A stretch of DNA of 64,000 nt from an uncultured delta proteobacterium (GTDB lineage Bacteria > Desulfobacterota > Desulfobaccia > Desulfobaccales > 0-14-0-80-60-11): contig CAWETI010000003.1 in assembly GCA_963812015.1 (NCBI GenBank), positions 1 to 64,000 of the forward strand. Direction: 5' to 3'. Both the position numbers and the translations under genes were made by a program. Each line of letters opens with the position of its first letter. Position 1 is the first letter of the stretch. The notes under the pieces are model-generated. The model did no database searches, had not been told where the DNA came from, and saw nothing but the letters and a program-made list of their open reading frames with translations. Shown one piece after another: positions 56,458 to 64,000 of this stretch.

Positions 56458-56784
56458 TCACTTTCCCTCTTCCGCCAGAACGTCATAGACCCAGCTCAAG
56501 GCCGCGGACGTATGCGGGAAGCCGATGGTGCTGGTTAACAGGATGACGGCGTGATAGATCTCTTCCGGGGTCGCCCCGGCCTTTAAGGCCCTTCTCACGT
56601 GGCTGTGCACCGAGCCCTCTGAACGGCTGGCCGCCGCCCCCGCCAGCTGGATCAGGTGGGAGGTCTTCTCATCCAACGGCCCCTCCCGGCGCGCCGCTTC
56701 GCCCAGCTGCTCCAGGGCCTGGATAAATTTTCCGTGTTTTTCCTTAATGAAGGAGTACCAACCGGGATAAATTTCTGCGGACAT
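56458..56784 (-). CDS. Carboxymuconolactone decarboxylase family protein
   Basis: GPLDEKT.HLI, HVRRAL.AGATPEEI and GFP motifs. Confidence 0.88.
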   Translation of the reverse strand: MSAEIYPGWYSFIKEKHGKFIQALEQLGEAARREGPLDEKTSHLIQLAGAAASRSEGSVHSHVRRALKAGATPEEIYHAVILLTSTIGFPHTSAALSWVYDVLAEEGK

Positions 56785-57076
56785 GGTCTTAACCTCCGTG
56801 TCGTTTCAGCCTCATTCCTCGGTCCAGGATCAGCAATTTTTCGTACTAAAACTTATGATGCCCACCCCAAGCCCCAATGTCAAGTAACCCTCTCAGGAGG
56901 TCTCACCGCCGCCTGCCAGGCCTCTTCACTTCTGGCGGTAAGCCCCCCAAGCTTTCTGACCCAGGTTCCCCTGACCCTGGGTGCAGGCGTCCGGTTGCAC
57001 CTATACTGCCGGGCGGGCCTCCAGCTCTCTAATTTCAGGCCACTGAATTTATTAGTTAAATTAGCTTGCCGGCTAT

Positions 57077-57092
57077 TGGCATCAGGCTTGCA
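57077..57092 (+). promoter_or_regulatory. Sigma54 (-24/-12) promoter
   Basis: TGGCATCAGGCTTGCA has the GG-N10-GC spacing. Confidence 0.72.
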
Positions 57093-57129
57093 ATTAACTG
57101 GGACAATCTTAAATCGGGAAGGTGAGACG

Positions 57130-57888
57130 ATGAAGGCAGGGAAACTTCTGCTCATGGTACTGGTCCTCCTGGTGGGAATGGCGGTGGCGGCCCCTGCGGT
57201 TACCATTCATTCCCCGTGGCATTCCGGCCAACCCGAGGAGAATCTCTATCAAATTATCACCGCCTGGGGCTTTCCCGTTGATAATAACACCCTCCAGCAC
57301 GCCACTCCCCTGGAAAGCCTCCCGGCGGGCGCCTATTCGATTAGCCACTATGCCAGATACGCCGATATGACCCAATTCTTGGGAACCTATCCCCTGGGCC
57401 AAACGCCCCCGGCTCATGGCGACCGGATACCTGACGGTGGCATTACAATGCTTAACGTGAAGCAATCAGGAAATTGGGTCTGCGATATAATCTTTTCCCA
57501 AACCTCGCCCTTCGGTTTCTTTGATGCTGCCAATCAGAAAACCTTCCTCATGACCACCCAAAATCAAAACTCTGGCGCCGCCCCTTACCATCAGGCCAGC
57601 GGCTTAATCTTCGATCTGGGAGAGATTAATCCCCAGTATTTCGGGCAATACATCATTGCCTTTAATGATGGGGACAAGCGCCATCCTTATGGAGACCTGG
57701 ATTATAATGACCTGGTGGTTCACCTGTACTGTCAGAACCAAGGGAACCACGCGCCCCTTCCGGGAACCTTGCCGATGGCGGGCGGTGGGCTGCTTGGCCT
57801 CTGGATGTTGGGGCGTTATGCGCGGCTTTTCGCCTTAACGTCCGCGTTTTCTGGCCACCATCCCCCGAAAAGCGGCGGATCGACTTGA
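57130..57888 (+). CDS. Exported protein with DUF4114-like motif and PEP-CTERM/VPLPA-like sorting tail
   Basis: Signal peptide MKAGKLLL..., IAFND...DLDYNDLVV, then APLPG + hydrophobic segment + basic residues. ATG at 57130; the ORF-track 5' extension is rejected. Confidence 0.7.
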   Translation: MKAGKLLLMVLVLLVGMAVAAPAVTIHSPWHSGQPEENLYQIITAWGFPVDNNTLQHATPLESLPAGAYSISHYARYADMTQFLGTYPLGQTPPAHGDRIPDGGITMLNVKQSGNWVCDIIFSQTSPFGFFDAANQKTFLMTTQNQNSGAAPYHQASGLIFDLGEINPQYFGQYIIAFNDGDKRHPYGDLDYNDLVVHLYCQNQGNHAPLPGTLPMAGGGLLGLWMLGRYARLFALTSAFSGHHPPKSGGST

Positions 57889-60936: not shown

Positions 60937-61110
60937 GGGGCTGCCGCATCATTTCCGGAATTCCCGGAGCAGACCAAATGCTCGAGGTCTCCGTAAACCG
61001 GCATCGAACAGTTGAGGCTGAAACCAACGGCAGGAGGTCAGGTATGAGGTCCCGGTGGCCGGGCCCTGGCCACCAGGGGTTGATTGGTCATCAAGGGGTG
61101 CGGCAGTCCC
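60937..61110. ncRNA. Candidate structured non-coding RNA (family unassigned)
   Basis: Closing stem GGGGCTGCCGCATC / GGTGCGGCAGTCCC, second helix GACCAA/TTGGTC, and internal hairpins. Confidence 0.35.
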
Positions 61111-61122
61111 GCCCCGGGTGCC

Positions 61123-62868
61123 TCAAAGGGGGGTGACTTTACCATCCTGGACCTGGTATCCCAGGGTTTTCAGGATGACTGCCTGCTGGTCAGTGACTTC
61201 CTCGATCACCCTCTTCAGTTTGCCGTCGGGGTCCTTGGCGTAGATGGCGGTCCGTAAAGCCCGCAATTCCTCCATGGCCTCGCTGGGGGTCATTTTGCTA
61301 CCGGCGGCAGCCAGCCGCTGGCAGAGCAGCGTGAGGTAAGTGAGGGCCGCCACACAGACGAACAGGTGAACCCGGACCTTCGAATCGGTCCAGTGGTATA
61401 AAGGCAACAGCGCTTTTTGGAAGAGACTGCGGTTATCTTTGGCGTTGCCGTGAGGCCGGATACCATTGCTGCCTTTGTCATTGCCCAACTCGGGTCCCAG
61501 GACGGCCTGGGTCATGCAGGTGTCATAAATCTCCTCCACGCCCCAGTCCATATGATCGGTGATGAGGATATTCTTCCCGAAATGGCGCACGACAGCGGCC
61601 ATCTCACCATGATCCAACTGGAACTCCAGGCGGGGCTGGCCTTTTTCTTCTTTGAAATTCAACTGGAAGAGAGCCGGACTGATTTTGAGGCGGTGGCAAA
61701 GTTGGGCCAGGTGAGTTTTGACGGAGTCAACCGCGTTCCCCTGGGTGGCTTCCTGGGCATAGCGCTGCTGCAACGCCACCATTTCCTTGCGCACCCTCGT
61801 CACTTTTTTGCCCAGCTCCTGGTAGCTCTTATGAAAGCTCTTGGGGTCAAAGGTGATGATTGCCCGGCGAGGACGGTTCCAAAAGGCCGCCTGAGTTTCA
61901 TAATACAGAATTTTTTCGTCTTCTTTGCCAACGTAAGAGGGCAGGGCCTCACGTTTCCCCGGGAGGGGGCGGAAATCTTTCAAAGAAATTTCGGTCAGCT
62001 CGGGGGCAAACTCCGGGGCGTAAGAGGCAATAAAGTGCATGCCTTCTTTGGCATCGATCTGCTCAATGAGGGGTGCGGTGTCCATTTGTTGGTTGACGAG
62101 CAAGGTGACATCCTGGATCTTCACCCCCAGGCTGGAGACTTTGGCCAGGAGGCGCTCCATATGATCAGAGAAGCCGGTGACGGGCAAGCCACCGGAAAAA
62201 CTCTGGTAATAAAACGGAACCCCGGCGCTCTTCTCGGCAATCAAGGCCAATCCCAACTGTTGTTGGGCATAATGTTCCGCCAGGAAATCCTGATCCGGCT
62301 GGGGAATCCCCTCAAAGGCCGACGGCTTGGGAGGAGAGGAAATATTGGCGGCCTCAATGACCAGGCGGTACGGCTGAGAAGGCAGGAGTGAATGGACCTT
62401 TTTAAAAAAGGCCGTCTTGATTTTGTCCAGGTCAGAATCACTGATCCGATCCCAGTGGTTCCAAAAATTTTGGGAGTTCAAAGATTCCAGCCTCAGGGGG
62501 CGAATCCTTTGAATATCTGTGGTTTCGTACCAGTTAGCCAGTTGCCTTTTGCTGGTGGGGGCGATGGCCCGGTTCAGCGCGGCATAGAAGACCAGTTCCC
62601 CCAGCGAGGGCCCCCGGACTCGTTTTTTGGGGGGGAGGATCTCATTAATCATCCCGGCCAAGTCCATGGCTCGATCAAGTTCGTTGAGGGCAAAAACCGA
62701 CCCGAACTCCTTGGGGGAGAACCCACCTTTTCCTAAAACCTCCTGGACCTTATCTGCGGTGCCCAGGTACACTTGGTTAATCGTGGTGGGTTTGCCATAG
62801 ACCCGCTGGGTTTCCCGAATATAAAAATATTCATGACCCTTTTTGACTTTCTTGTAGAGATGCGCCAT
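61123..62868 (-). CDS. IS1634-family transposase-like protein lacking recognisable DDE residues
   Basis: AHLYKK.KKG..Y.YIRE..RV.GKP...QVYLG, NRAIAP.SK, SQNFW, FGKNILITD and PLYHWTDSKVRVHLFVCV motifs. Expected acidic positions are degenerate. Confidence 0.75.
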   Translation of the reverse strand: MAHLYKKVKKGHEYFYIRETQRVYGKPTTINQVYLGTADKVQEVLGKGGFSPKEFGSVFALNELDRAMDLAGMINEILPPKKRVRGPSLGELVFYAALNRAIAPTSKRQLANWYETTDIQRIRPLRLESLNSQNFWNHWDRISDSDLDKIKTAFFKKVHSLLPSQPYRLVIEAANISSPPKPSAFEGIPQPDQDFLAEHYAQQQLGLALIAEKSAGVPFYYQSFSGGLPVTGFSDHMERLLAKVSSLGVKIQDVTLLVNQQMDTAPLIEQIDAKEGMHFIASYAPEFAPELTEISLKDFRPLPGKREALPSYVGKEDEKILYYETQAAFWNRPRRAIITFDPKSFHKSYQELGKKVTRVRKEMVALQQRYAQEATQGNAVDSVKTHLAQLCHRLKISPALFQLNFKEEKGQPRLEFQLDHGEMAAVVRHFGKNILITDHMDWGVEEIYDTCMTQAVLGPELGNDKGSNGIRPHGNAKDNRSLFQKALLPLYHWTDSKVRVHLFVCVAALTYLTLLCQRLAAAGSKMTPSEAMEELRALRTAIYAKDPDGKLKRVIEEVTDQQAVILKTLGYQVQDGKVTPL

Positions 62869-62955
62869 TTTCAATCCATTTTTTAATAAATTAAGTTAAT
62901 TTTTAAATTAACGCCGCTATTAATTTAACAAATTTTTTGTCACGAAGAAAATGAG

Positions 62956-62991
62956 GCAAAGTACTCTTTTTTATAGAGCAAAGTACTCTTT
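62956..62991. promoter_or_regulatory. 14-bp direct repeat GCAAAGTACTCTTT x2 (22-bp period), candidate regulator sites
   Basis: Copies at 62956-62969 and 62978-62991, upstream of the transposase-like gene. Confidence 0.5.
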
Positions 62992-63053
62992 CGCTAGTCT
63001 TTTGAGTAGAGAATTCAGTATCCTATCAACTAGGAGGGGGACTACTGTAGGGT

Positions 63054-63707
63054 TCAGGAAAGGGAAGAGGCCGTATATCCCATGCGGATGGCGTATTTCA
63101 CCAGGTCGGTATTTTTCTTGAGGTTTAATTTCTTCATAATTTTCGTGCGATGATTTTGAATGGTTCGGAAACTGAGAAACAGGATTTCCGCAATTTCTTT
63201 GCTCGATTTGCCCTCGGCGATCAGGGTGATAATCTCAATTTCCCGGGGGGAGAGTTGGTCGGAAGGTTCGACATTGTCCTGGCGCCGATTCTGGACATAG
63301 ATGGTTACCAGGTCACTGGAAAGCAAGGGGGACACGTAGATCATCCCCTGCCTGATCTGCTCGATGGCATAGAGAAGTTCTTTGGGGGCATCCTCTTTCA
63401 GCAGATAGCCGTCCACTCCGGCCGCCAGGGCATTATTCAGGTATTCGGTCTTTTTGTGCATGGTCAGAATCAACACTTTGACAGCCGGGTAGGCCTTCTT
63501 AATCTCTCGGGTGGCTTCTATCCCCGGGAGCGAAGGCATGGAGATATCGAGGATCACCATATCAACCGCCCGGCCTTTCAAAAGCTTCAGCAGCTCCAGT
63601 CCATCCCCCACTTCTCCCACGACTTCCAGTCCTGGTATTGCTTCAATGATTTTCTTAATCCCTTCGCGCACCAGAACGTGATCTTCGGCTAAGATAATTT
63701 TATACAT
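63054..63707 (-). CDS. NarL/FixJ-family response regulator
   Basis: ILAEDH, LDISMP, LTMH, and LuxR HTH LSPRE..IAEGKSSKEIA. Confidence 0.95.
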   Translation of the reverse strand: MYKIILAEDHVLVREGIKKIIEAIPGLEVVGEVGDGLELLKLLKGRAVDMVILDISMPSLPGIEATREIKKAYPAVKVLILTMHKKTEYLNNALAAGVDGYLLKEDAPKELLYAIEQIRQGMIYVSPLLSSDLVTIYVQNRRQDNVEPSDQLSPREIEIITLIAEGKSSKEIAEILFLSFRTIQNHRTKIMKKLNLKKNTDLVKYAIRMGYTASSLS

Positions 63708-63709
63708 GA

Positions 63710-64000
63710 CTATTTCCATGAATTACTCGTTGGAATAGAAAACCTGATGGTGGTCCCCTGACCCTGCCGGCTTGAGATCTGGAGCGAGCCTTCGGCCATG
63801 AGGGCCCTTTCATTCATGGCACTCAACCCCAGACTTTTTTGGGCGACCTTCCGGGACATGGCCCTCCTTAAATTAAACCCTCGGCCGTTATCTTTTATCA
63901 CAAAGGTTACTTGCCCGTTATCTCTTTTCACCTTCACCGAGACCAGGCTGGCCCTGGCATGCTTGACCACATTAGTCAAGGATTCCTGAAAAATGCGATA
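63710..64000 (-). CDS. NarX/UhpB-type sensor histidine kinase, C-terminal part (truncated by window)
   Basis: RIFQESLTNVVKHA, DNGRGF, LGL..MNER and GQGT motifs. Confidence 0.9.
   Translation of the reverse strand, partial: YRIFQESLTNVVKHARASLVSVKVKRDNGQVTFVIKDNGRGFNLRRAMSRKVAQKSLGLSAMNERALMAEGSLQISSRQGQGTTIRFSIPTSNSWK

Follow-up and report, generated by a model that had tools for sequence, protein, structure and literature searches.

The window, i.e., the whole 64,000-nucleotide stretch of DNA analysed here, comes from a genome of the order Desulfobaccales and comprises, on its minus strand, a gene coding for a 581-aa protein (61123–62868), assigned by a family profile, alignment, an AlphaFold2 (AF2) model, and Foldseek to the IS1634 transposases, as a domesticated member lacking the DDE triad. 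Directly upstream on the same strand lie a gene for a NarL/LuxR-type response regulator (63054–63704; Pfam Response_reg and GerE domains) and the 3' end of a gene for a PAS/GAF HisKA_3 sensor kinase (63710–64000), which continues past the window. The original prediction, made from the letters of the sequence, described an uninterrupted, full-length ORF of ca. 580 codons following a NarL-type pair and an AT-rich upstream region; the ORF is indeed uninterrupted, the pair is in place, and the upstream region has a G+C content of 36–39%. The host genome is 3.96 Mb in size and 99.9% complete, and the gene is present in it in a single copy (tblastn, blastn, and NF033559 profile searches).

The affiliation to IS1634, also predicted originally, agrees with the score of the protein against the family profile NCBIfam NF033559 (141 bits at a cut-off of 100) and with its fold. 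The AF2 model, built on a 146-row alignment, has a mean pLDDT of 87, and its best Foldseek matches are Tn5 transposases (E 1e-6, precisely 1.2e-6), which identifies an IS4/Tn5-like fold. A Pfam search of the protein gave no significant match, unlike the four intact relatives tested, all of which match DDE_Tnp_1. In the ESM Atlas it falls among clusters without names, the nearest named one being DUF4277 at 0.89, and the database names inspected are mostly "transposase" or "hypothetical protein". Only 5–10% of words were matched in the 17 wetland metatranscriptome runs searched; contigs of relatives from four runs span the gene, which, with no silent control, is no proof of transcription.

A GC-rich hairpin past the stop codon (61050–61076, minus strand), judged from its fold with no shuffle control, is the likely terminator; it was not called by a consensus terminator scan because it has no T-run. 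A strong hairpin of genus-specific sequence follows most of the genes of this type (ca. 19 of 25, by eye and with no control). The sequence downstream of them is not conserved between genera and contains no conserved RNA sequence, and an Rfam search gave no match. Elsewhere in the window, the ORF at 56656–57888 has no Pfam match; its C-terminal part, judged by eye, suggests a secreted protein ending in a PEP-CTERM-like tail.

The catalytic triad and the core

The catalytic positions were determined in an alignment of 183 proteins, and the triad was counted on 176 of them after removal of seven partial or duplicate rows. The D-D-E positions of the 581-aa protein are E172 (codon 62353–62355), N259 (codon 62092–62094), and G458 (codon 61495–61497; all minus strand), with YDTTNF of the other proteins aligned to IEAANI at E172, FDKGN to VNQQM at N259, and the IE of YxxQxxIE to G458. 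The mapping proposed originally holds against the 127 other IS1634-type proteins. A complete D-D-E is found in 125 of these 127 and in none of the 49 members of the clade to which the protein belongs (called dead proteins below). Position 1 is E in 48 of the 49 and W in one, compared with D in 126/127 of the others; position 2 is occupied by N, G, H, S, or P, and never by D (0/49), which is present there in 127/127 of the others; at position 3 the clade has G (24 proteins), E (16), or one of D, S, and A (nine), the others having E in 125/127. A second set of 48 loci, which partly overlaps the first, has E at position 1 in 45, D in two, and W in one, and again none has D at position 2. The loss of all three catalytic residues, as noted originally, applies to the host copy only; in the clade the Glu survives in 16 of 49, the first Asp is nearly always replaced by Glu, and the second Asp is always lost. 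In the available text of PMC2266710, the DDE motif is described as perfectly conserved in these families; the intact triad that marks an active IS1634 element there is absent from the dead gene.

The surroundings of the active site are altered as well. The RGxxKxxR-DLRQ stretch of the intact enzymes corresponds in the dead protein to a low-confidence loop (residues 184–200), and an insertion of ca. 15 residues follows triad position 3, with a pLDDT below 50 at residues 461–477. A rewired active site could nevertheless retain residual or altered metal-dependent chemistry, such as nicking, hairpin formation, or recombination, since the first position still has an acidic residue (E in 48/49; E or D in 47/48 of the second, partly overlapping set), R454 is present in 47 of the 49 orthologues, and the modelled fold is intact. 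This is very improbable in view of the second Asp being lost in all orthologues of both sets, the variability of the third position, the RGxxKxxR-DLRQ stretch being gone and modelled as disordered, and the core being the fastest-evolving region of the dead protein. A protein that does not cut DNA is the preferred reading.

Two full-length IS1634-like proteins outside the clade, P0167 (N/D/K) and P0216 (D/D/R), also have broken triads; each forms a single-member cluster, and they are possible independent inactivations or domestications.

Distribution, descent, and selection

The gene is carried by 54 of the 83 Desulfobaccales genomes, normally once: 48 of the carriers have a full-length copy, in two it is cut by contig ends, and in four (G014, G025, G049, and G076) it is frameshifted or truncated. 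It is present in all 17 other genomes of the host genus and in 9/9 genomes of genus g15, which belongs to the other family. No match was obtained with this query in genera g2–g7, g14, g16, and g17, many of whose genomes are more than 90% complete. Of 386 genomes sampled from the phylum outside the order, 16 had a match to the intact sister P0123 (E ≤ 1e-40), and the Glu characteristic of position 1 of the clade was found in none of the matched genomes in which this position was covered. In one bin, G047, the whole locus is found twice (L056 and L062; 96% identity), on different contigs and with one copy frameshifted; this bin is probably a mixture of strains.

The dead proteins group together as a single clade (SH-aLRT 100 in a quick IQ-TREE analysis of 24 dead and 22 intact rows; FastTree 1.0), to which the intact elements P0123, L192, and L194 are the sister group. 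Its branching, g15 | (g13, (g8, ((g10, g12), (g1, g9, g11)))), corresponds to that of an RpoB tree built from 41 genomes; only g13 differs, grouping weakly with non-carriers in the latter. At least six changes are needed on that tree, the gene being lost or undetected in 29 of the 83 genomes. The simplest reading of these trees would be a single domestication close to the root of the order, with losses thereafter; alternatively, the cassette may have been transferred early from one of the two families to the other.

No repeats flank the ORF, as had been noted originally, and IS ends of the sister type were found at none of the 81 distinct dead loci by a test that recovers 53 of 65 intact ends. 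The terminal inverted repeats and target duplication of an active element are missing, there is no MITE or IS-end population in the host genome, and no multiple copies bounded by inverted repeats exist. In place of the several copies, varied insertion sites, and patchy spread typical of a mobile element, the gene has conserved neighbours and a tree congruent with that of RpoB.

Selection was estimated as pairwise Nei–Gojobori dN/dS. Within the host genus (16 sequences, 120 pairs, mean dS 0.7) its median is 0.166 overall and 0.033 over residues 1–150. In six dead groups the values are 0.025–0.08 for residues 1–150, 0.19–0.41 for the core, and 0.09–0.26 for the C-terminus, and those for the whole gene are 0.12–0.30 at dS 0.5–1.1. 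In the intact sisters, estimated from the 28 of 276 pairs that are unsaturated, they are 0.27, 0.31, and 0.31 for the N-terminus, core, and C-terminus, respectively.

An ordinary IS remnant decaying neutrally, or an element that is still mobile, would agree with the IS1634 HMM cut-off being passed and with 4/54 copies being frameshifted or truncated. Both are refuted by the dN/dS values and the RpoB-congruent tree, to which the 48 full-length orthologues, the conserved synteny, and the absence of ends can be added, and the probability left to them is negligible. The gene is present in a single copy, is vertically inherited, persists, and has been under purifying selection since the loss of mobility, like domesticated transposases (the first three as described for RAYTs in the available text of PMC5581495). 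Domestication itself is practically certain, and the original preference for selection in a non-transposase role over random decay finds support in the purifying selection on syntenic, vertically inherited orthologues, in the missing triad, and in the lack of multiple copies bounded by inverted repeats.

The strongest selection acts on residues 1–150 (62419–62868, minus strand), predicted from dN/dS, conservation, and the model to be the nucleic-acid-binding part; this focus is a finding beyond the original prediction, as is the operator in the AT-rich upstream region described below. According to the model, residues 1–48 form a three-stranded beta-sheet and a helix, followed by a helical domain. 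Among pairs of 35–45% overall identity, dead proteins are 67–72% identical over residues 1–150 vs. 29% in the core, and the intact ones 41–42% vs. 41%. Of the 150 N-terminal positions, 78 are conserved in 47 or more of the 49 orthologues, and conserved Lys and Arg residues number 18 in this region compared with five in the 335-residue core. The first 40 residues still share 26–29 identities with the nearest intact elements. A conserved N-terminus next to a drifting core is the pattern that would be expected of a protein binding nucleic acids, not of a catalyst.

Such a protein need not recognise a sequence. It could be a structure-specific or non-specific binder or scaffold (of the nucleoid, of single-stranded DNA or RNA, or of the replication fork), induced when a given condition is sensed, in agreement with no sequence-specific sites having been found. 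Residues 1–48 are weakly similar to single-strand binders of the PC4/Pur type (Foldseek E 0.15; VIA Z 4.7), at values below the tools' own trust levels. Moreover, a Q-x-x-hydrophobic motif like the clamp motif of IS1634 (PMC4549789) is present at Q562 in 45 of 49 orthologues; Q562 lies, however, within a confidently modelled helix. The predicted complex of residues 486–581 with the host beta clamp scored 0.00, which is no verdict on an interaction. The near-invariance of ca. 80 N-terminal positions suggests a specific target, and a binder or scaffold of this kind is considered rather unlikely.

The upstream two-component pair and its putative operator

Of 81 loci, three are too short to be informative; in 61 of the other 78, the regulator gene lies directly upstream of the dead gene, an arrangement found in both families. 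The kinase gene (G000:C3:63710-68691) is split into two overlapping ORFs of 694 and 973 aa, which may be due to a sequencing frameshift; several relatives have a single kinase ORF of ca. 1720 aa, and the length in the genus varies from ca. 450 to 1720 aa. Further upstream there are genes coding for a DUF3786 protein and an acyl-CoA synthetase (ATP-grasp) (G000:C3:68778-71713), conserved at orthologous loci; where the kinase–regulator pair has been lost, the synthetase gene adjoins the dead transposase gene.

The region between the regulator gene and the dead gene contains two 19-bp imperfect inverted repeats (62951–62991), 22 bp apart, regarded here as a candidate operator of the NarL-type regulator: the proximal box AAAGAGTACTTTGCCTCAT at −101 (62951–62969) and the distal box AAAGAGTACTTTGCTCTAT at −123 (62973–62991), both on the minus strand. 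They are the only strong matches to the operator matrix in the host genome, with scores of 31–32; two other sites score ca. 15, and shuffled sequences give four to six matches above 15. The strict tandem pattern is found 13 times in the 83 genomes, in 13/13 cases at the promoter of the dead gene, and not once in the control. Of the family f1 loci, 50 of the 51 that have the regulator gene show two strong boxes, compared with none of the 17 that lack it. The matrix was trained mostly on sites of g1, g10, g11, and g12, so the scores of these genera are partly circular; in g15 the motif is only loosely similar and 0/10 pass the same cut-off.

Genus g9 includes genomes of both kinds, and its boxes are decayed where a close regulator orthologue was not found (the best match being ca. 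57%, the level of a paralogue). Among its nine genomes without the regulator, the gene is intact in four, broken in two, and absent from three, while it is intact in all six genomes with the regulator; whole-gene dN/dS is 0.30 without the regulator vs. 0.18 with it. The link between the two is not obligatory, as the gene has been kept under selection in g8 and in those g9 genomes where it is intact but the regulator is missing. Since the boxes are strong where the regulator is present and lost where it is not, the PAS/GAF kinase–regulator pair likely controls the gene, with the regulator presumably binding the tandem boxes and activating transcription. According to the available text of PMC4549865, operators of the NarL family consist of inverted heptamers with a preferred 7-2-7 spacing; the half-sites found here are heptamer-like (TACTCTT and TGCTCTA) and of alternating orientation, but are spaced by 3 and 5 bp, not 7-2-7. 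No sigma-70 consensus promoter was found on the coding strand.

The possibility that the tandem boxes are a binding site of the dead protein itself or a relic of IS ends was rejected, because they decay with the loss of the regulator while the gene stays; they do not resemble the sister ends either. A separate element, GTAGTCCCC (63037–63045, minus strand), is kept in most genomes of the host genus and has a weak likeness to the internal box of the intact sisters described below. In g8 (L106–L111 and L125), a conserved TGTAATACCCAC motif lies ca. 90 bp upstream of the gene, just 5' of a TTGCAA hexamer. It is found at the gene's own promoter in 5/5 g8 genomes, with four other matches vs. four control matches, and could be a relic, a box bound by the protein itself, or half of the palindrome of another regulator.

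Predicted function and relation to known systems

The nearest intact IS1634 elements are P0123, whose cluster includes VBB44866.1 of an uncultured Desulfatiglans, L192, and L194. Intact sisters have the same length and fold as the dead protein and are 40% identical to it overall and 57% over residues 1–150. They have kept the D-D-E triad, terminal repeats, and internal boxes, all of which are missing from the dead gene, and they are scattered or multi-copy and evolve evenly along the protein, while the dead gene does neither. The terminal repeats of the sisters are CAGGAGTTT-like or CTCGASTTTAC-like. A box of the GTARGACCC type is located internally in the sisters at three places: at ca. −107, within the 3' end of the ORF, and at −27, where it sits between a TTGACA and a −10 hexamer. 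An internal box is common to the intact elements of this IS1634 branch (L170–L230, which are the intact sisters, L131–L137, and L168); besides the copy at ca. −107, they have one in the transposase promoter, which lies just 5' of the start codon and is apparently leaderless, and one inside the ORF's 3' end or close to it. The box varies with the sequence of the N-terminal strands (GTAAGACCC, GTAGGACCC, GTATGACCT, and GTATACAC). It is a candidate site for both transposase binding and self-repression, and the ancestor of the dead protein was probably a self-repressor, because the box separates the −35 hexamer of the promoter from the −10 hexamer.

The host genome is not enriched in the ancestral box (170 matches vs. 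304–325 in shuffled sequences; 49 vs. 60–74 for intergenic ones), and its 92 GTARTMCCC matches, 15 of them intergenic, have no pattern. The strict pattern has 14 matches in the 54 carriers, in unrelated contexts and with no conserved sites. With the box neither enriched nor conserved, either the specificity has shifted or the targets are foreign.

Of the two roles proposed originally, a DNA-binding regulator and a transposition inhibitor, both are still the leading candidates. The preferred reading, to which a probability of ca. 45% is given, is that the protein regulates a few host promoters by binding DNA without cutting it and is itself turned on by the adjacent pair. The PAS/GAF kinase and the NarL-type regulator would turn the gene on through the tandem upstream operator, and residues 1–150 would bind DNA as they did in the ancestor, which may already have repressed its own promoter via the −27 GTARGACCC-type box. 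The C-terminal part may, with the dead RNase H-like core, provide a scaffold or dimer surface, and the product would act as a sequence-specific, non-cutting regulator of the host promoters. The step from self-repression to the control of host promoters would be short, because the ancestor was probably self-repressing and the first 40 residues are still close to those of intact elements. The presence of a multi-PAS sensor with its only detectable operator here fits a regulatory cascade, and a dedicated sensor system would seem more in keeping with a physiological output than with a defence that is always on. Somewhat more tentatively, a DDE transposase may have turned into a transcription factor once, at or near the root of Desulfobaccales, by retaining its operator-binding N-terminus, and become the only detectable output of a dedicated two-component system.

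If the targets are foreign, the protein could provide inducible immunity against its own IS1634 subgroup by binding the GTARGACCC box and the ends of incoming elements, silencing their transposase promoter and/or, as a dead partner, poisoning synaptic complexes. The N-terminal strands remain close to those of the nearest intact elements, no host sites were found for the ancestral box, and the box and ends are common to elements only ca. 40% alike in protein, so that a single repressor could act on many of them. Intact sister genes or ends are found in five of 29 non-carriers vs. none of 54 carriers (Fisher p 0.004), and other IS1634 subgroups do live in carriers. The five genomes come, however, from two genera only, so the test overstates the difference; the background outside the order is 16/386, not far from 0/54, and IS are under-assembled in metagenome bins. 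Moreover, it is difficult to see why an immunity system would be controlled by a multi-PAS sensor, and a PADLOC search gave no match. Immunity, the main rival of the host-regulator reading, is on balance rather unlikely.

The dead gene resembles those of TldR, the nuclease-dead TnpB repressors, in that a transposon gene for a nuclease has become non-catalytic and, in the case of the dead gene presumably, has been turned to DNA binding and gene control. TldR proteins, according to the available text of 10.1101/2023.11.30.569447, are RuvC/TnpB-type and RNA-guided; the dead gene codes for a DDE transposase fold, and it has neither an Rfam match nor a downstream sequence conserved between genera. 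RAYT (TnpA-REP) genes are likewise single-copy, vertically inherited, housekeeping-like bacterial transposase genes, but, as described in the available texts of PMC5581495 and PMC8266576, they code for HUH enzymes still processing REP repeats. The dead protein has a DDE fold without the triad, and no repeat family associated with it was found. In the portion of the open-access literature covered, no description of the dead gene or of any other domesticated IS1634 or bacterial DDE transposase was found, the bacterial cases there being RAYT (HUH) and TldR (TnpB). The locus represents a real, old, order-wide, and cleanly delimited domestication of a kind rarely described in bacteria, with a predicted switch upstream and an inferred function. 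The "transposase" label inflates IS counts and hides a likely regulator. The predicted switch, the DNA-binding region, and the candidate ancestral box make the role of dead bacterial transposases directly testable.

The inhibitor of Tn5 is a non-functional partner that dampens transposition, as the dead protein could also be; it is a product of the element itself and lacks the DNA-binding domain at the N-terminus. The Tn5 transposase (PDB 1muh and 1b7e are among the Foldseek matches) has the same IS4-like fold as the dead protein, in which, unlike in the inhibitor, the N-terminus is the best-kept part, and whose gene is fixed in the host. If the proposed role is true, then together with P0167 and P0216 it suggests that IS1634 has been a repeated source of bacterial regulators. 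DDE transposases tamed into regulators are familiar in eukaryotes, and the dead protein would be a prokaryotic counterpart of the eukaryotic transposase-derived transcription factors.
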